Positions 17,837-28,386 of a stretch of DNA of 32,218 nucleotides are shown here, piece by piece. A program made the translations under genes and the position numbers. The stretch lies in the IMG/VR virus record IMGVR_UViG_2534682164_000018. One strand, given 5' to 3'. The stretch's first letter is position 1. Every line of letters begins with the position of its first letter. The notes beneath the pieces were generated by a model. The model did not search any database. It was not told the DNA's origin and was given only the letters and a program-made list of their open reading frames with translations. This DNA is from a virus. Its lineage: Duplodnaviria > Heunggongvirae > Uroviricota > Caudoviricetes.

Positions 17837-18229
17837 ATGATGTTAGTACAAAAAGTACGGAATACGATGAAGCAGCTTATCAATGCTACTAAGAATCTGA
17901 CAGTATCACGTGATGTTGATGTATTTGAACAAATTGCTTTTGATTACTCATTAACGAGTTTAAGTTTCAGCAATGAACGCCGGGCAGGTAACTTTGCAAT
18001 TCAGTATCTGATTTCCCCTAAACCAGAATCAGGTAATACAGCCCCATCCATCACTTATGATCAGATTATTAGTACTTTTGATAAAGAGAAAACTTCAGCA
18101 TTCAGTGATGCAGGTTTAATAATGCTTTCGTGTTCTTATGAACAATCCGATATTGTCACAGATCCTATAACTGGCTCGGTTTCCCTATCCTTTACGATAA
18201 ATATTCAAGTTACGGAAAAGACAAGATAA
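17837..18229 (+). CDS. putative neck/tail completion protein
   Basis: Start chosen at the internal Met (MMLVQKV...) so as not to overlap the previous gene; positional assignment. Confidence 0.35.
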   Translation: MMLVQKVRNTMKQLINATKNLTVSRDVDVFEQIAFDYSLTSLSFSNERRAGNFAIQYLISPKPESGNTAPSITYDQIISTFDKEKTSAFSDAGLIMLSCSYEQSDIVTDPITGSVSLSFTINIQVTEKTR

Positions 18230-18246
18230 CTAAAAGGATATAAAGG

Positions 18247-20898
18247 ATGAGTGATATTTTCTCAGGAAGAGAATTATCAGTACAGTATAATGCTGATATT
18301 GGTAACAGAACACCACAGGGAGCAGGCAATGTAGTAATTAAACAGATTAATACTTTTCCAACCTTAACAATAAATTCAGAAGCAAATAATTTTGAAACGT
18401 ATGATAGTGATTACAGGACAGTACTACTATCTGATAAATCAGTAGCACCATTTGATATTGTAGTTAACTACCTACCTGATGATCCTACACATCAATTCTT
18501 GGATAATGCCGCTAAGTCTCAGCAGCTTTTCCAGATCATCATTCAGTACCAGATGAATAAGGATGAAAATACCATTACTTATGCGATGGTGAATGGTTAT
18601 ATCACCTCTTATAAGTTGGACGGTGATAAAGGTTCAGTAGTAACCAAGGCATACAGTTTTGCCCCACATGATGTGATCGCACGTGCAATGACCATTAACG
18701 CACTATCGCCAATCTATCAGGGGGACTACGGTTTAGGTTCGAACACTACGGATGTACCTCAGTACTCACCATCAGTACCTACGGGTAACAGCTTCATCAA
18801 AGTACCATCATCTCAAGCAGGCAATCCTGCCGGGGCGGATCTGATGGGAGTAGGGCTTGTAGATGGCACTACTGTAAGTTCTCTTGCGATGACAAAGACG
18901 GGTACTCTAAGTATCTATGCAAAGAACGCTACAACCGCCTGGACACGCATATATACCGCTACACAGATGGACGGGCGATACGTACCCCTTACACGTACCA
19001 TCAACGGCCATGCACTCACGGCCAATTTAGTACTGAACAGTGAAGATACAGGTTCAGTACCTGATACACGTACTGTGAATGGTAAGCCTCTAAGTGAGGA
19101 TGTAGTACTTACCAGTACTGATACCGGCTCTGTACCAGATACACGGACAGTTAATGGTCATGTACTCAGTGAAGATATAGTACTGAGTAGTGAAGATACA
19201 GGTTCAGTACCTGACACGCGTACAGTGAACGGTCATGTACTTAGTGAAAATGTAGTACTGAGTAGTGAAGATACAGGTTCAGTACCTGATACACGTATGG
19301 TCAACGGTCATGTACTCAGTGAGGATGTAGTACTTACCAGTACTGATGTTGGCTTAGGGAAGGTTACAGATGATGCCCAGCTTACGATAGCAGGTAATCT
19401 AAGTGATCTGGGGGACGTGGAAGAAGCACGTATTAACCTTGCTGTTTACTCAATGGATGAAGTAGATGCAGAGGTAACGGCTTTAGCTGACAGTATTACT
19501 TCCCTTGATTCCGCTTCCATGAAGAAAGCGAGTAACCTTTCTGATCTATCCAGTCTCTCTACAGCACGTACTAACCTACAGGTGAACCGTTTGACTCAGG
19601 GTGCTACGTACACCGATCTGATGAGTAATGACCTGACTAACCGTATCCGAATTCAGGATAACGGGGCATGGGGTGCAAGTACTGGTACTGGATGGATTGC
19701 TTTAGGTATAGGTCAGGGGGGGACAGGGGCTACAGATGCTTTGAGTGCTCGCCTAAACTTTCAGGTGGATCGCTTTAATCAAGGTAGTAATTTAACAACT
19801 ATTAAATCCGCTGATTCTTCCGCTGCATTAGTGGTTTATGATGGAGGGCAATGGGGTTCAGCTACATATATTGCGGGTGCTTTCACTGGCTGGAAAGCAT
19901 TAGCAATTCCGCAGGGCGGTACTGGTGTTAAGACTCAGGCTGAGTTATGGCCTGCGATTCGTCCTACGGGTGCAACTTCTTTAGCAGGAGATCCTGTCTC
20001 TGATTCTGACGCGACTACCAAACGCTGGGTTGAAAACTTGCTGAGTAGTCGTACTTCAGTTAGTCCTCAATGGGATGTTATTGCTTCTTCCCCTTCCTCT
20101 ACGGCAATTGGTAGTTATGTAACTGGAGGGCGTATTCGTTCGATATGCAACATTGGTACATCAACTGAAATATCTGGTGGTTTTCGGGTTGGTAAAACGA
20201 TGGGACAGACTGGACAGGCTGATCTCACCCTTTTTATTTCTGAAAATGGTGCAGAGGATAAACTATGGGGGCTAAAAGGGCCGACTGGAACGATCCTAAC
20301 TGATGTTCAATCAGGATGGATGACTAATACCGCTGTTTCGGGACCGACAGATGCCAATACCATCACCTTTAACGGTATGTATGCAGGGCCAGGTGACTCA
20401 GGTATTAACTATAGTGAAAAATATTCCCCTTTATTGCACATGCAAAGATACCCAGGGGCAAATCGCTCTCAGCTTCAGATAGACGGTGGTGGTACTTTAA
20501 GAGTACGAGGCGGGAACGGTACAACATGGTTTGGATGGTTAGTAATGCAAGCTCAAGGTACATCAGGTCGTGAGTTTAAAAGAGACATAACTCCAGCAAA
20601 TCCAGTTGAAGCATTAGATCGGATAATGTCACAAGATTTAGTAACGTTTATCTACAAGGATGATGAACAAGAAAGGGTTAGGTTTGGTGTTATCGCCGAA
20701 GATGCTGAGTTGACTGCTCCGCAGTACATTAAGCATGATGAAGAAACAGTTGAAATAGAAGGGGAGATTGTCACTCGTGATCATCCACGTGTTGATTTAA
20801 ATCCAATAGTGATGGACTTGATGGGAGCTATTCAAGCCCAACAAGAAGAAATTAATCAGCTAAAAGATTTAGTACAACAGCTATTAAATAATAAATAA
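18247..20898 (+). CDS. tail fibre with tail-tube-like N-domain, five 25-aa fibre repeats and C-terminal intramolecular-chaperone (peptidase S74-like) domain
   Basis: N-terminal 150 aa is paralogous to the 157-aa protein at 20957 (shared DIFSG...NTF...VNYLPD...HQ.L); repeats SVPDTRTVNGHVLSEDVVLTSTDTG; C-terminus ...EFKRDITP...RFGVIAEDAE... resembles autoproteolytic chaperone domains of phage fibres. Confidence 0.65.
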   Translation: MSDIFSGRELSVQYNADIGNRTPQGAGNVVIKQINTFPTLTINSEANNFETYDSDYRTVLLSDKSVAPFDIVVNYLPDDPTHQFLDNAAKSQQLFQIIIQYQMNKDENTITYAMVNGYITSYKLDGDKGSVVTKAYSFAPHDVIARAMTINALSPIYQGDYGLGSNTTDVPQYSPSVPTGNSFIKVPSSQAGNPAGADLMGVGLVDGTTVSSLAMTKTGTLSIYAKNATTAWTRIYTATQMDGRYVPLTRTINGHALTANLVLNSEDTGSVPDTRTVNGKPLSEDVVLTSTDTGSVPDTRTVNGHVLSEDIVLSSEDTGSVPDTRTVNGHVLSENVVLSSEDTGSVPDTRMVNGHVLSEDVVLTSTDVGLGKVTDDAQLTIAGNLSDLGDVEEARINLAVYSMDEVDAEVTALADSITSLDSASMKKASNLSDLSSLSTARTNLQVNRLTQGATYTDLMSNDLTNRIRIQDNGAWGASTGTGWIALGIGQGGTGATDALSARLNFQVDRFNQGSNLTTIKSADSSAALVVYDGGQWGSATYIAGAFTGWKALAIPQGGTGVKTQAELWPAIRPTGATSLAGDPVSDSDATTKRWVENLLSSRTSVSPQWDVIASSPSSTAIGSYVTGGRIRSICNIGTSTEISGGFRVGKTMGQTGQADLTLFISENGAEDKLWGLKGPTGTILTDVQSGWMTNTAVSGPTDANTITFNGMYAGPGDSGINYSEKYSPLLHMQRYPGANRSQLQIDGGGTLRVRGGNGTTWFGWLVMQAQGTSGREFKRDITPANPVEALDRIMSQDLVTFIYKDDEQERVRFGVIAEDAELTAPQYIKHDEETVEIEGEIVTRDHPRVDLNPIVMDLMGAIQAQQEEINQLKDLVQQLLNNK
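18991..19353 (+). repeat. five tandem 75-bp in-frame repeats encoding the fibre repeat
   Basis: Near-identical copies of acacgtac(a/t)gt(g/c)aa(c/t)ggtcatgtact(c/t)agtga(a/g)gat...ggttcagtacctgat read directly. Confidence 0.7.
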
Positions 20899-20956
20899 AT
20901 ATAAACGGGGTGAACGGATTCACTCCAATAAAATTTTCTTATAAGGATATAAAACT

Positions 20957-21430
20957 ATGGCTATGGATATTTTTTCCGGTGCTAACCTTACTGTAGAAGT
21001 AGGTTCAAGTGCTGGTAAAACAGTTGCTACTGACTTTGTAGAAGTACCAGAGGTAAACACCTTCAGTACTTCAGGCTTTGAAAGTACTGTAATTAGCGTA
21101 AAAACATTCAATAATGCTTATGATCGTAAGCTATTGGGTACTAAGTCAATCCCGGACATTTCTCTTGCAGTTAACTACTTACCAGATAATGCAGTACATC
21201 AGAATTTAGAACAACTTGCAGACGATCAGAAACGTTGTCAGGTAAAACTAAGCTATTTTACCGATGCAACTAAAAAAGAAGGTTTCTTTGTAATTTATAC
21301 CTGCTTTGTTTCAAGTACCACTATCGGTGGTGATAAAGATGAAGTAGTAACTAAGACTTTCACCCTTGCAGTTGATGGTGAAGCAATTGATTCAGGTCTG
21401 ATTACTCCAAAACCAGAATCGGGCGAATAA
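20957..21430 (+). CDS. major tail (tube) protein
   Basis: 157 aa, immediately upstream of chaperone and tape-measure genes, followed by a strong terminator; paralogous to the N-domain of the 883-aa fibre. Confidence 0.55.
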   Translation: MAMDIFSGANLTVEVGSSAGKTVATDFVEVPEVNTFSTSGFESTVISVKTFNNAYDRKLLGTKSIPDISLAVNYLPDNAVHQNLEQLADDQKRCQVKLSYFTDATKKEGFFVIYTCFVSSTTIGGDKDEVVTKTFTLAVDGEAIDSGLITPKPESGE

Positions 21431-21438
21431 TAATAAAT

Positions 21439-21470
21439 AAAGGGAAGGTGCTCAACTTTCCCTTTTTATT
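21439..21470 (+). terminator. rho-independent terminator after the major tail protein gene
   Basis: Stem aaagggaa / ttcccttt (8 bp) with 11-nt loop, followed by ttatt. Confidence 0.55.
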
Positions 21471-21536
21471 GGAGATGAAAATGAATTTAAACGAATTGAA
21501 GAAAAACTACAACCAGAATTAAAACCACATGAAGTA

Positions 21537-21779
21537 ATGGGTGAAATCATCTTTATTCATCGTCCAAATGGTCAGGATTTCCAGAAATGCACTGATGTGG
21601 CTAAAACTCTAATCCTATGTGTAAAAGATGAAAATGGTGATCCTATCTTCGCAGAAGAAGATATTGATGGACGAATTAATGTTAACTCTATTGATTTTGT
21701 AATCCAGAATGAAATTTACTCAGCAATTATTGCTTTAATCAATACTGCGAAACCTGTAGATGAAGTAGAAAAAAAGTAA
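21537..21779 (+). CDS. tail assembly chaperone (lambda G analogue)
   Basis: 80-aa ORF between tail-tube and tape-measure genes, ending ...VEKK-stop with slippery A_AAA_AAG one codon before the stop. Confidence 0.55.
   Translation: MGEIIFIHRPNGQDFQKCTDVAKTLILCVKDENGDPIFAEEDIDGRINVNSIDFVIQNEIYSAIIALINTAKPVDEVEKK
21770..21776 (+). other. candidate -1 programmed ribosomal frameshift site A_AAA_AAG
   Basis: In frame 0 the codons AAA AAG sit at 21771-21776; the -1 frame is open from 21764 to 22174. Confidence 0.5.
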
Positions 21780-22174
21780 GAGGTGATATCGAATTAAAGT
21801 ACTTTTGTAAGATGGTTAACAAAAGAGGCTTATCACCTGAAGAATACTTTAGTTTAGATCCTGATGTACTCAATATGCTTATGATCTACGATACTTTTAT
21901 AGAACCATCCGGTACGCAGATTGAAATGATGAAACATGCGTACCAGTGTTACTACACCACTATCAGTAATGGCAACCTAACACCAGAAGCAAGGAAAAGT
22001 ATCAAGGTACAGGATTTTGATTTTCTTGATGTGCTTAGTGATAGTACTAAGAGTACTTCAGAGAAAGCTGAAGAAAGAAAATTAAAAACTAAAGAGGCTC
22101 AATCCAATGATATTAAATCTATAGGGGAGTTAATTAAATCTCAGGTATTAGGAAAGAAAAAGAATGGCAAATAA
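21776..22174 (+). CDS. T-like extension of the tail assembly chaperone, probably made only as a G-T fusion by -1 frameshift
   Basis: -1 frame is open from the slippery site to just inside the tape-measure gene; the track ORF from the ATG at 21812 may not be translated on its own. Confidence 0.45.
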   Translation, partial: VRGDIELKYFCKMVNKRGLSPEEYFSLDPDVLNMLMIYDTFIEPSGTQIEMMKHAYQCYYTTISNGNLTPEARKSIKVQDFDFLDVLSDSTKSTSEKAEERKLKTKEAQSNDIKSIGELIKSQVLGKKKNGK

Positions 22175-24377
22175 TAATAGAATACGTGTAGATATTACGG
22201 GTGATTCTTCCGGTTTACAGCGTGCTTTAAGGTCTGGTACTGAATCATTAGAGGAATTTGGTAGTACTGCTGGTGGCATTGTTGAAGAGTTCACAGGCCG
22301 AATAACTGGTATGGCTGGCGGGTTCGGTACTGCTATGACCGGGATCGCGGGTGCTGCGGCTATTGGTATTGGTGGCCTGGCAGCATTAGTAGAATCATCA
22401 CGTGAATATGTGCGTGAAATGAACCAGATCAGTAAGAGTACCGGATTGTCCGTGGTTCAGTTACAACAGCTATCAGCGGCGTTTAGTGGCCTCGGTCTTG
22501 AGATTGATAAGTTTGGTGATTTCAACAAGGATACCTTGGATAAGCTCGGTGATGCTTTTCGTGCTGGCGGTGGTGTATCCGATGATCTTAAAGAATATGG
22601 ACTCAACCTACAGGACTATAACAAGTACTTAAAACAGGCTGATGGTGGTATGCAGGCTGTGATCCACACCTTTTACGCCATGCGTGATGCAGGTAAATCA
22701 CAGAGTGAAATAGTTAACGTAATGGAAACGTTAGCCAGTGACTCAAGCCACATGATTAGTACTCTTCAGCAGTTCAATAATGAGGCTCAAGCTACAGCCT
22801 ATATCCAGTCACAAAATGCTGAAGTAACTAATGATGCTGCTGAAAAATATGCTGAATTCGATAAAAACCTTGGGAAACTTACTACCAGCATTAAAGGTAC
22901 TATTGCTGATGGCCTATCACCTTTAGTTAATGCCATGAACAGTGTCTATGATGCTGCAAATCAAAAACCTCACGAGGCAGGTTTGTTTGAAGATCTGAAT
23001 GAACGTATTAAAACTTCCAAGGGTTCTCTACAGGATATGTTGGATATCTGGGAAAAATTACGTACAGCAGGGGCATTAAACTACCAGGGTGCAGCACTCA
23101 ATACTGGCATCATGGATGATAAGGGCAACAAGGGTAATGAGTTCGCTCAGGCTAAGGCACGTTTAGAAGAACTGGCAAACAACCTAAAGTCCGATGTTGC
23201 GGTTGCTACCGCTCCTACTGGCGGATGGGTTGATCAGGCAAAAGAAGCTGAAGATGCAGCGAAGAAGTTAGAACAACAACGTAAACAGGCAGAAGCGGCA
23301 CAAAAGGCGGCAGATGCAAAACGCCTACAGGCTCAACGTAATCTGGAAGCTGCTCTTGCTCAAGTTGGGGAAGATGGTTTTCAGGTACGTCTACAGCAGT
23401 TCGACAGACAACAAAAGGCACTTCTTAAAACCATCACCGATAGTGCTCAAGTACTCGGTATCAATCCTGATGAAATGCTAAAGAACGCTACTGCATATGG
23501 TGCTAAACAACGTACTGATTTACTGAATTCAATGGTTGGTTATCAAGATCCTAATCAGGGTCTGAAAGATACCAATGCTCTTATTGGTTCCGGTCTACTC
23601 AATGACAATCAGAAGGGGTATCTGGCACAGCAACAGAATCAGCGTATCAATGGTGGTAATCCATTAGCCTATAACGATACCGATCAGAAGTTGAAAGATA
23701 ACGCTGATGCTATGAATGCTGAACTTCAGCAGAATGAGTTGTTGCTGAAAGGCCATGAGGACTATGAGAAACGTAAAGCTGAGATCACGGCAAAGTACAA
23801 TGCACAGGCCATCCAAATCAGTAACCAGAATGCACAGGATCAGTTAAGTATCTTCTCAAGTACTGCACAGTCACTATCACAGGGCATGGTTGATGCGTTT
23901 GGGGAAAGTAGTGGGGCTGCACAAGCTGCATTTACCCTAAGTAAGAGCATAAGCATTGCACAGACAGTACTTTCAATTCAGTCAGCATTGGCCCAAGCAC
24001 TCGCTACCCCTTGGCCAGCTTCATTGGCAAACTATGCACAAGTACTTTCACTTGGTATGTCGATTATTAGTACTGCAAAGGGTGCTGCTGCTGGTCAGTT
24101 CCATGGCGGGGTAGATGAACTACCAGCAAGTTATGACAACAAATCATTTGTACTTAAGCAGGGCGAGAGAGTGGTGCAGCCTGAAGCGAATAAGAAATTA
24201 ACAGCATTCTTGGATAAACAAGAAGGTGGAAGTACTTCAGGTGATATTACCGTTAACGCACCATTGATCATCCAGGGTGATGTAGCTGATGATGACAAGA
24301 AATTTAATGAGATGCTTAAGAAACACGCCAATAGTGTTTCTCAAGCTGTGAGAAGTAGTCAAAAACGTAATACATAA
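22164..24377 (+). CDS. tail tape measure protein
   Basis: 737 aa, Ala/Gly/Gln-rich and coiled-coil-like, in the canonical position downstream of G/GT. Confidence 0.8.
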   Translation: MANNNRIRVDITGDSSGLQRALRSGTESLEEFGSTAGGIVEEFTGRITGMAGGFGTAMTGIAGAAAIGIGGLAALVESSREYVREMNQISKSTGLSVVQLQQLSAAFSGLGLEIDKFGDFNKDTLDKLGDAFRAGGGVSDDLKEYGLNLQDYNKYLKQADGGMQAVIHTFYAMRDAGKSQSEIVNVMETLASDSSHMISTLQQFNNEAQATAYIQSQNAEVTNDAAEKYAEFDKNLGKLTTSIKGTIADGLSPLVNAMNSVYDAANQKPHEAGLFEDLNERIKTSKGSLQDMLDIWEKLRTAGALNYQGAALNTGIMDDKGNKGNEFAQAKARLEELANNLKSDVAVATAPTGGWVDQAKEAEDAAKKLEQQRKQAEAAQKAADAKRLQAQRNLEAALAQVGEDGFQVRLQQFDRQQKALLKTITDSAQVLGINPDEMLKNATAYGAKQRTDLLNSMVGYQDPNQGLKDTNALIGSGLLNDNQKGYLAQQQNQRINGGNPLAYNDTDQKLKDNADAMNAELQQNELLLKGHEDYEKRKAEITAKYNAQAIQISNQNAQDQLSIFSSTAQSLSQGMVDAFGESSGAAQAAFTLSKSISIAQTVLSIQSALAQALATPWPASLANYAQVLSLGMSIISTAKGAAAGQFHGGVDELPASYDNKSFVLKQGERVVQPEANKKLTAFLDKQEGGSTSGDITVNAPLIIQGDVADDDKKFNEMLKKHANSVSQAVRSSQKRNT

Positions 24378-24387
24378 GAAAGCCCAG

Positions 24388-24861
24388 TTAGGGATTTTCC
24401 GTGTGATAAGACAAATATTGTGAAAGAGAAGATGAAAGGGTATAGAGATTGTAATACTCTTCCCGCAATAATTTAACTTTAGGTGGTGAGTATTTAATAT
24501 TGTATGCAAGCTGTGTTGAAAGAGTACGTAATCTCGATAATGAATAATAACTCTTTACGATGGCATCTACTTCTTTTTTTGGGAGTGATGCTAATTTTTC
24601 TAATTGGGAATAATATACATCATCATGCAAATAAGAAACGGCAGTTGCTACTCTTTTAATAGCTTCTGTATCTTCAGTTGGAAGAGGAATACATATTTCA
24701 TATGTGCCTAACACCTGAGACTCATCGCCACCAGTAGCAAGAGCTAAAAGGTTATTGTTGATTTCGCTCAATAAGATTACACGCATCTTAAAAACATCAT
24801 CTGAACTTTCTTTCCATTTATCATATGCGTTATAGCCTATTTGGCCTGCAAATAACAACAT
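24388..24861 (-). CDS. hypothetical reverse-strand moron inside the tail module
   Basis: 157-aa ORF fills the 583-bp gap between tape-measure and distal tail genes on the opposite strand; no recognised motif. Confidence 0.4.
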   Translation of the reverse strand: MLLFAGQIGYNAYDKWKESSDDVFKMRVILLSEINNNLLALATGGDESQVLGTYEICIPLPTEDTEAIKRVATAVSYLHDDVYYSQLEKLASLPKKEVDAIVKSYYSLSRLRTLSTQLAYNIKYSPPKVKLLREEYYNLYTLSSSLSQYLSYHTENP

Positions 24862-24960: not shown

Positions 24961-25518
24961 ATGGCATCCTTTTCAAATCAAATAAAAGTAACGAACTTTC
25001 AAATTAAAAGTACTGAACCGATCTATTCTAATCAAACATGGACAGGTCAACGTATCATGAGAAGTACTGGAATTCAATACTATCAAATTCAGTTCACCCT
25101 TAATTTTAATCCTGCATCACTAAATGAAGTGAATAGCTTTTTAGCTCAATATGCACAGGGCAAACCTTTCACTATGTCATTGGGGCTTGCAGGTACATAT
25201 TACGGTAAACAGACTGGTGCAGTAACCGCTACTGCTCTCACTAAACCGGGTAATATGGTTGTACCTATCAGTACTAACACATTAGCTGTGGGTGAGTGGG
25301 TACAGTTTTCCAATCACAATAAGCTATATCGAATCGTAGAACGTACCAGTACTTCAATTACTATTTTCCCTGCTCTACAAAATACAGTACAGGCAAGTGA
25401 AGCACTCAAATATAACAATCTCATGATCGAGGCTGTATTAGATCCAGACAATGATTATTCATTGCCTATTGGGAACATCATGAATATTACATTGAAAGCA
25501 ACGGAGAATATCATCTAA
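24961..25518 (+). CDS. minor tail protein (lambda gpM-like)
   Basis: YQIQFTLNFNPASLNEVNSFLAQYAQGKPFTMSL resembles the gpM pattern YSVTLSVPREEATVLESFLEEHGGWKSFLW (recalled); position after tape measure. Confidence 0.45.
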   Translation: MASFSNQIKVTNFQIKSTEPIYSNQTWTGQRIMRSTGIQYYQIQFTLNFNPASLNEVNSFLAQYAQGKPFTMSLGLAGTYYGKQTGAVTATALTKPGNMVVPISTNTLAVGEWVQFSNHNKLYRIVERTSTSITIFPALQNTVQASEALKYNNLMIEAVLDPDNDYSLPIGNIMNITLKATENII

Positions 25519-26141: not shown

Positions 26142-27050
<909 letters not shown>

Positions 27051-27141
27051 TAGACTGGCCCCCTGAATCTCCAGACAACCAGTATCACTTAAATAAGTGA
27101 TAGTCTTAATACTAGTTTTTAGACTAGTCATTGGAGTACAG

Positions 27142-27507
27142 ATGATTGATGTCTTAGGGCCGGAGAAACGCAGACGGCGTACCACACAGGAAAAGATCGC
27201 AATTGTTCAGCAGAGCTTTGAACCGGGGATGACGGTCTCCCTCGTTGCCCGGCAACATGGTGTAGCAGCCAGCCAGTTATTTCTCTGGCGTAAGCAATAC
27301 CAGGAAGGAAGTCTTACTGCTGTCGCCGCCGGAGAACAGGTTGTTCCTGCCTCTGAACTTGCTGCCGCCATGAAGCAGATTAAAGAACTCCAGCGCCTGC
27401 TCGGCAAGAAAACGATGGAAAATGAACTCCTCAAAGAAGCCGTTGAATATGGACGGGCAAAAAAGTGGATAGCGCACGCGCCCTTATTGCCCGGGGATGG
27501 GGAGTAA
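27142..27507 (+). CDS. insC: IS2 InsC (orfA)
   Basis: Same translation as the copy at 11699-12064. Confidence 0.9.
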
Positions 27508-28370
27508 GCTTAGTCAGCCGTTGTCTCCGGGTGTCGCGTGCGCAGTTGCACGTCATTCTCAGACGAACCGATGACTGGATGGATGGCCGCCGCAGTCGTC
27601 ACACTGATGATACGGATGTGCTTCTCCGTATACACCATGTTATCGGAGAGCTGCCCACGTATGGTTATCGTCGGGTATGGGCGCTGCTTCGCAGACAGGC
27701 AGAACTTGATGATATGCCTGCGATCAATGCCAAACGTGTTTACCGGATCATGCGCCAGAATGCGCTGTTGCTTGAGCGAAAACCTGCTGTACCGCCATCG
27801 AAACGGGCACATACAGGCAGAGTGGCCGTGAAAGAAAGCAATCAGCGATGGTGCTCTGACGGGTTCGAGTTCTGCTGTGATAACGGAGAGAGACTGCGTG
27901 TCACGTTCGCGCTGGACTGCTGTGATCGTGAGGCACTGCACTGGGCGGTGACTACCGGCGGCTTCAACAGTGAAACAGTACAGGACGTCATGCTGGGAGC
28001 GGTGGAACGCCGCTTCGGCAACGATCTTCCGTCGTCTCCAGTGGAGTGGCTGACGGATAATGGTTCATGCTACCGGGCTAATGAAACACGCCAGTTCGCC
28101 CGGATGTTGGGACTTGAACCGAAGAACACGGCGGTGCGGAGTCCGGAGAGTAACGGAATAGCAGAGAGCTTCGTGAAAACGATAAAGCGTGACTACATCA
28201 GTATCATGCCCAAACCAGACGGGTTAACGGCAGCAAAGAACCTTGCAGAGGCGTTCGAGCATTATAACGAATGGCATCCGCATAGTGCGCTGGGTTATCG
28301 CTCGCCACGGGAATATCTGCGGCAGCGGGCTTGTAATGGGTTAAGTGATAACAGATGTCTGGAAATATAG
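27465..28370 (+). CDS. insD: IS2 InsD transposase
   Basis: 301 aa; one residue differs from the other copy (Asp versus Gly in ...AELD(D/G)MPA...). Confidence 0.9.
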
Positions 28371-28386
28371 GGGCAAATCCAGTGGT

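Follow-up and report, generated by a model that had tools for sequence, protein, structure and literature searches.

The way in which side fibres are attached to flexible phage tails is understood for only a few model systems, and a gene in one virus record of IMG/VR (IMGVR_UViG_2534682164_000018; Caudoviricetes) raises the question whether a phage may make such an anchor out of its own tail tube protein. The 32,218 nucleotides of that record, called the window in what follows, are a decayed Shigella sonnei prophage; features lie on the + strand unless marked otherwise. The gene in question (18247-20898, stop codon included) encodes a protein of 883 amino acids (aa) that starts with a domain resembling a tail tube protein (aa 1-150; 18247-18696) and continues as a fibre. 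The gene for the major tail tube protein itself (TTP; 157 aa, 20957-21430) is adjacent. With middling confidence we take the 883-aa protein for a lateral (side) tail fibre attached through a diverged copy of the phage's own TTP, the fibre probably being built directly into the tail tube.

Tube domain and fibre in one protein

BLASTP aligns aa 3-139 of the fibre protein with aa 4-138 of the TTP at 42 identical positions of 137 (31%; E 3e-19). Only two gaps interrupt the alignment and the whole architecture of the tube protein is therefore retained; all four of the motifs DIFSG, NTF, VNYLPD and HQ.L stand in register within it, and the hairpin region T-[YF]-[DN]-x-x-Y-x-x-x-LL is kept in the fibre's N-domain. 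Comparison of profiles (27 N-termini of the fibre family, 11 TTP orthologues; hhalign) yields a probability of 99.6% and E 4e-24 over 136 columns. Both proteins match PHROG 158, 'major tail protein' (E 1.3e-16 for the fibre protein, 5.8e-19 for the TTP). The TTP, which is without a decoration domain, also lies above the Pfam cut-off for Phage_tail_3 (34 bits vs 24.2; E 2.8e-8) and makes weaker matches to the Pfam families of lambda-like TTPs; no Pfam TTP model matches the fibre's N-domain even at E 10, and NCBIfam likewise offers none. AlphaFold2 (AF2) predicts for this domain a beta-sandwich with a flanking helix and a long beta2-beta3 hairpin, which is the tube fold and not an Ig-like one, and a Foldseek search of predicted viral structures returns TTPs, many of them bearing Ig or FN3 tails. 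(Profiles of the N-terminal module, the TTP and the tail terminator made only chance-level matches to the sequences in the PDB.) Judged by alignment and model, aa 1-150 of the fibre protein are a TTP paralogue with the tube fold. The paralogue has a gene to itself, complete with start and ribosome-binding site; the ribosome-binding context AAGGATATAAA is common to the starts of the fibre gene (18230-18246) and the TTP gene (20940-20956). The stretch between the two genes contains an 8-bp hairpin (20906-20925), and a terminator-like hairpin with a T-run is found 3' of the TTP gene (21442-21461).

Beyond the tube domain, the AF2 model has a predicted flexible linker (~aa 151-178; 18697-18780), with predicted local distance difference test (pLDDT) scores below 50 and no secondary structure over aa 157-176, and then a second conserved domain, D2 (~aa 179-240; 18781-18966), which is small and all-beta, its five strands modelled at pLDDT ~80. 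Pfam, PHROG and NCBIfam gave no significant match that would assign D2 to a family. Next come five tandem 25-aa shaft repeats (18994-19368) of the form RT[IV]NGxxLxxxxxLxSxDTGSVPDT, whose units begin at aa 250, 275, 300, 325 and 350; Tandem Repeats Finder reports a 75-nucleotide period in 4.2 copies (19028-19342). The variable distal shaft and receptor-binding region (19369-20538) is similar to lateral tail fibres of coliphages, T5-like ones among them: tblastn finds aa 485-879 to be 47.5% identical to LtfB of DT57C and DT571/2, with many matches to 'tail fiber' genes besides, and the region also matches PHROG tail-fibre families. The protein ends in a C-terminal intramolecular chaperone region (20539-20898, stop codon included), in which Peptidase_S74 (PF13884) is matched at aa 774-822 (E 3.3e-8; 34.1 bits vs a cut-off of 22). 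S74 domains fold trimeric fibres and are then cleaved off. Ser773-x4-Lys778 (SGREFK), which we take to be the catalytic self-cleavage pair of the family, has the spacing of SDERAK, SDIRLK and SDKNAK in the homologues P0018, P0003 and P0069.

A sequence-only reading of the window had noticed an ordered set of motifs common to the fibre's N-terminus and the tail tube protein and had taken them to mark a duplicated domain. The highly significant pairwise and profile alignments bear this out, and the predicted fold agrees with it. The five fibre repeats of that reading are confirmed by the repeat starts and the 75-nucleotide period, and its chaperone-like C-terminal domain by the Peptidase_S74 match together with the Ser/Lys pair. 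Where it had delimited an N-domain of 150 aa, the paralogy stands but the conserved module is longer, extending to ~aa 245 and including the second small domain.

Distribution and age of the anchor module

An exhaustive search by profile through 1.84 billion representatives of protein clusters (50% identity; E up to 0.001) found 253 proteins. About 100 of the representatives hold the whole aa 1-260 module, in proteins of 600-1560 aa; more distant matches are 278-1209 aa long, and those of ~150 aa are plain TTPs. In that search no D2 occurred apart from a tube domain. The N-terminal module is present in all of the 120 best homologues. The TTP-like domain is 38-75% identical to that of the window protein in most homologues, the exceptions being the two Shigella copies and a near-identical relative, at 95-100%; aa 151-245 lie above the TTP-like domain, at 60-88% identity in most homologues, and the C-terminal part of the fibre varies freely. 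The hosts are Escherichia, Shigella, Enterobacter, Citrobacter, Klebsiella, Salmonella, Cedecea, Erwinia, Kosakonia, Leclercia, Atlantibacter and Buttiauxella and, further, Rahnella, Serratia, Pantoea, Kluyvera and Hafnia. This is a conserved, unannotated family in temperate siphophage prophages of Enterobacterales, whose members are at present labelled 'tail fiber domain-containing protein', 'pyocin knob domain-containing S74 family peptidase' or 'hypothetical'.

Gene order is identical in 30 of the 30 loci that were compared (21 from IMG/VR, two from E. coli and seven from species-representative genomes) and runs FII-like protein, tail terminator, TTP-fibre, TTP, chaperones, tape measure, distal tail protein (Dit). 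Distant sublineages have one extra fibre gene between the anchor gene and the TTP gene. Two examples of this split form are a Hafnia prophage (L025, 9001-12145), with an anchor of 446 aa, and GenBank record PQ671644 of Escherichia phage DCP80 (L001, 8763-13136), with one of 698 aa. In both, the anchor comprises the tube domain, D2 and a short fibre; the second protein is a 576-aa S74 fibre in Hafnia and a protein of 745 aa with no Pfam match in DCP80. The N-terminal module thus acts as a self-contained anchor, and the two-gene form suggests that the fibre of these distant relatives is two-part or branched, like LtfA/LtfB of DT57C.

Among 50,697 phage records, PQ671644 is the only one that the N-terminal module matches (tblastn). 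Isolates with a matching TTP are limited to that record and a few Vibrio phages, no isolate relative of the capsid protein exceeds 31% identity, and megablast against 5,426 complete E. coli genomes turned up no close relative. The lineage is without a cultured member, and no isolated phage is known to carry the module. As to PQ671644, the record is labelled Straboviridae, T4-like, 141 kb, and its positions 1-18530 are an 18-kb lambda-like siphophage structural module (capsid 31% and TTP 40% identical to those of the prophage family); apparently the assembly is chimeric or the record mislabelled.

How old is the duplication? The TTPs of three lineages are 39-56% identical among themselves, the corresponding fibre N-domains only 21-28% among themselves and 20-29% to the TTPs. 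In a neighbour-joining tree the TTPs of the distant lineages form one clade and the fibre N-domains fall outside it; both paralogues keep a (D/E)(I/V)F(S/T/A)G motif in all three lineages. It is these identities and the tree, taken with the shared D2, that point to a single ancient duplication, after which the fibre copy evolved faster. Mean distances over 19 non-redundant loci are 0.41 for the N-domain, 0.26 for D2 and 0.22 for the TTP. The family-wide occurrence of the module and the tree rule out a duplication of recent or local origin, and likewise an artefact of decay in the Shigella copy.

Co-divergence was examined by mirror-tree comparison. Across 19 loci the partial correlation of the N-domain is 0.48 with the TTP (permutation P 0.0025), 0.27 with Dit (P 0.009) and -0.33 with the adjacent terminator; among the 14 closer loci that with Dit is the highest (0.57) and that with the terminator is positive (0.32). 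(The scan of species-representative genomes had given seven loci only, too few for a strong co-evolution test.) The comparison is suggestive, weakly favouring a distal position of the N-domain, in contact with the TTP and Dit.

Attachment of the fibre to the tail

We picture the TTP-like domains as sitting in subunit positions of a tail-tube ring and not in an outer collar. By analogy with Ur-lambda Stf, the three N-domains of one fibre trimer would fill three neighbouring ring positions, each tethered by its linker. Because a tube fold and a flexible linker are combined with a trimer-forming S74 fibre, a hexameric ring would carry two trimeric fibres. The ring would most probably lie at the tube's distal end, next to Dit, on the model of T5 p140, and fibres placed there could reach the cell surface and bind reversibly at first, with the central gpJ-like fibre engaging later. 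Such early adsorption is the natural reading of the likeness to LtfB (the lateral fibres of DT57C are needed to infect hosts that produce O-antigen). The role that the sequence-only reading had proposed, decoration of the tube or a specialised ring, is thus narrowed and stays conjectural. Its remark that this is not a standard lambda-like arrangement holds good: lambda, T5, monocin and F2 pyocin attach their side fibres otherwise.

A 2026 paper adds a fourth solution to three characterised modes of side-fibre attachment. Docking is non-covalent in all of them, and the site is Dit, a collar or the central fibre. The side fibres of monocin and 80alpha are fixed by a loop of Dit. Ur-lambda has a 12-mer collar of the fibre's own Ig-like N-domains, three of which are joined to one trimer by ~10-residue linkers. 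T5 and DT57C have a ring of the TTP-derived p140/TTMP above Dit, wrapped by a p132/LtfC collar, and in the F2 pyocin OB domains on the shaft of the central fibre hold the side fibres. Our searches of the literature to August 2026 brought up no tube-fold-anchored fibre, and none of the four modes has a fused tube-fold anchor.

In its working the fibre anchor resembles p140/TTMP, of which it is not a member. T5 p140 arose by TTP duplication, and the fibre collar sits on its ring above Dit. It has two tube domains per chain (as a trimer), bears no fibre and needs the 12-mer Ig-like collar, whereas each chain of the window protein has one tube domain, linked covalently to the fibre, and the gene precedes that of the TTP and does not follow it, as the TTMP gene of DT57C does. 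No Pfam or PHROG match to a p132/LtfC-like family was found in the 17 neck, tail and tail-tip open reading frames (ORFs) that were scanned. Other dedicated distal rings of tube paralogues are those of T4 gp54 and phi92 gp135, and in Nocturne116 two tube-fold paralogues share a mixed ring. With Ur-lambda gpStf the window protein would have in common a trimeric fibre, three ring-forming N-domains on flexible linkers that absorb the symmetry mismatch, and service as an accessory adsorption fibre beside a gpJ-type central one. In gpStf, however, the N-domain is Ig-like, the collar is an external 12-mer round the gpV/gpM junction and the gene comes after J; here the N-domain has a tube fold, a hexamer is expected and the gene is upstream of that of the TTP. 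An anchor of the collar type of lambda Stf or T5 pb1 is not what is found, the N-domain having the tube fold and not an Ig-like one.

A tube-fold domain with an outward-facing extra domain is also the plan of lambda gpV, T5 pb6, YSD1_22 and SPP1 gp17.1*, and D2 may be the counterpart of a TTP decoration domain. Decorated TTPs carry small Ig-like or FN3 extras on every subunit or on a recoded fraction, whereas here a separate, 31%-identical paralogue bears a 700-residue trimeric fibre and an S74 chaperone; with a gene and a start of its own, it is not a recoded extension of the gp17.1* type. Fused tube folds or dedicated baseplate-end rings are likewise seen in hub, Tal and gpJ-type proteins, T4 gp48/gp54 and phi92 gp135/gp137, but hub and initiator proteins occupy the tail axis beneath the tube, and their genes come after that of the tape measure, where the prophage family has its own Dit and gpJ-like hub/fibre. 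Already known, accordingly, are the tie between tube-protein duplication and fibre anchoring (T5) and the use of ring-forming N-domains on a trimeric fibre (Ur-lambda); the side-fibre anchoring considered here is widespread, unannotated and, as far as literature searches show, undescribed.

Several observations weigh against a side fibre seated in a distal tube ring. The fibre gene lies between those of the terminator and the TTP, and if the order is collinear with the particle, as in T5, this would point to the head end for its product. The rate of evolution of the N-domain is about double that of the TTP, which fits a low-copy ring but also a looser role. The co-divergence signal is weak, and its terminator term flips sign between the full set and the subset. 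The ribosome-binding contexts of the fibre and TTP genes are equal, and nothing indicates low expression of the fibre. Finally, the window copy resides in a dead prophage in which terL and the gpJ-like gene are split, and function is not to be assumed for that copy.

Equal ribosome-binding contexts would suit sparse co-polymerisation, in which the TTP-like domain replaces TTP subunits at many sites of the tube and fibres stud the whole tail, somewhat as SPP1 gp17.1* mixes with gp17.1, though by way of a separate gene. That the N-domain keeps the full TTP architecture, N-terminal motif and hairpin region included, that the TTP is its strongest overall partner in co-divergence and that the true TTP is without a decoration domain all speak for such mixing. 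We nevertheless consider it unlikely: three N-domains tethered in each trimer favour clustered over random insertion, the TTP paralogues in the solved structures examined form dedicated rings and not mixed lattices, fibres distant from the tip would add little to its positioning, and the faster evolution of the N-domain argues against lattice constraints equal to those on the TTP. The position of the fibre gene, directly after the terminator and before the TTP in every locus, would, if tail gene order follows particle order as it does in T5-like phages, instead place the TTP-like domain in the last tube ring under the terminator, as the bearer of neck fibres or whiskers, and the terminator correlation in the 14-locus subset (0.32) is positive. 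The chances of this seem to us slim, since the same correlation is negative in the full set (-0.33), those with Dit and the TTP being positive, and since there is no known mechanism for placing a TTP paralogue specifically in the last ring. Moreover, the 737-aa tape measure implies a tail of ~110 nm (at an estimated ~0.15 nm per tape measure residue), so that a neck fibre of ~500 residues would fall short of the tip, and the distal part is like the lateral fibres with which T5-like phages bind surface polysaccharide at the tip.

The TTP-like domain might, alternatively, be no subunit of the tube wall at all, docking outside the tail, acting in assembly only or having no structural role. Its place in the tube is, after all, deduced, the Pfam TTP models miss it and it diverges quickly. 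We think this very improbable for a two-domain module whose conservation spans Enterobacterales, with at least 100 cluster representatives and a single fixed place in the gene order, and in which the whole (predicted) tube fold and the N-terminal arm motif are retained; tube-fold domains lie in the tube axis in the solved tail structures examined. To return to the tube-ring anchor, a bolder version of it would have the anchor, as a wall subunit of the DNA conduit, relay receptor binding by the side fibre straight into the tube lattice, signalling ejection or commitment, or would set fibres along the whole tail, where they could serve side-on adsorption. In either case it would be a fifth mode of attachment in non-contractile tails, next to the Dit loop, the Ig-like collar, the collared TTMP ring and the shaft of the central fibre; we regard this version as doubtful.

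The tail operon, its decay and the wider meaning

The structural genes of the window begin with terS, a lambda-type terL, a 176-aa connector protein, a lambda-family portal and a protease-capsid fusion. A 107-aa FII/stopper-like protein, the 130-aa terminator, the fibre gene, the TTP, the G/GT chaperones and the 737-aa tape measure follow and then, after an opposite-strand gene, Dit, two tail-tip proteins and a gpJ-like gene. In the fusion, a Peptidase_S78 prohead protease and an HK97-type major capsid protein form one 614-aa ORF (15654-17498, +), which is kept in relatives at 608-638 aa. Two HNH endonuclease ORFs lie upstream of terS (358-912 and 1959-2702, +).

The terminator gene (17837-18229) has its true start at ATG 17837 and not at TTG 17759. 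A terminator role for the fibre protein is ruled out, as this 130-aa neighbour has the terminator fold. A Dit role is ruled out as well: the fibre gene is upstream of that of the TTP, and there is a separate Dit after the tape measure (185 aa; 24961-25518), matching PHROG 1302, 'distal tail protein' (E 7.9e-17) and, weakly, the B-domain of T5 pb9. The tape measure gene itself (22164-24377) matches PHROG 13674 (E 5.4e-86). The tail assembly chaperone pair is of the G/GT type (21537-22174), with a slippery A_AAA_AAG at 21770-21776 from which the -1 frame is open into 21812-22174; its match to Phage_TAC_13 (E 3.6e-5; 24.5 bits) is under the cut-off of 28.8, and it matches PHROG 344 too. The first chaperone ORF has 80 aa in the window; that of an intact E. 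coli relative (L023) has 99 aa. An upstream ATG at 21475 (21475-21779) meets a stop after 15 codons, so that the window copy is probably frameshifted. The opposite-strand gene between tape measure and Dit (24388-24861, -) encodes 157 aa without a family match; relatives hold another gene at this spot (DUF6216 in L023), and the spot has the look of a slot for exchangeable cargo within the tail operon.

Decay is most evident in four insertion sequences (10836-12109, -; 27097-28370, +; 5125-7094, -; 30703-31901, -). Two are IS3-family copies with near-identical ORF pairs, equal in length and in Pfam matches: one splits terL into 10422-10865 and 12196-13656, and the other splits the gpJ-like gene (26538-27053, 28345-29796 and 29759-30697), which in L023 is a single unbroken ORF of 1067 aa. 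Of the remaining elements, one is an istA/istB pair of the IS21 family and the other again belongs to the IS3 family. The fibre protein of the window has a homologue that is 100% identical to it (P0001); in another from Shigella sonnei (P0002, 622 aa) a segment MKKASNLSDL...GAWGAST is duplicated internally and the protein ends early relative to window positions 18247-20898. The fibre gene thus varies or decays between S. sonnei strains.

If the proposed attachment is right, a fibre with its own tube-fold subunit is a simpler, one-gene solution to side-fibre fixation, and duplication of a tube protein has given rise to a new function, as it did with T5 p140. The N-terminal module (aa 1-245) is usable as a marker for annotating such genes, and it could serve for swapping receptor-binding ends in engineered phages or F-type tailocins.

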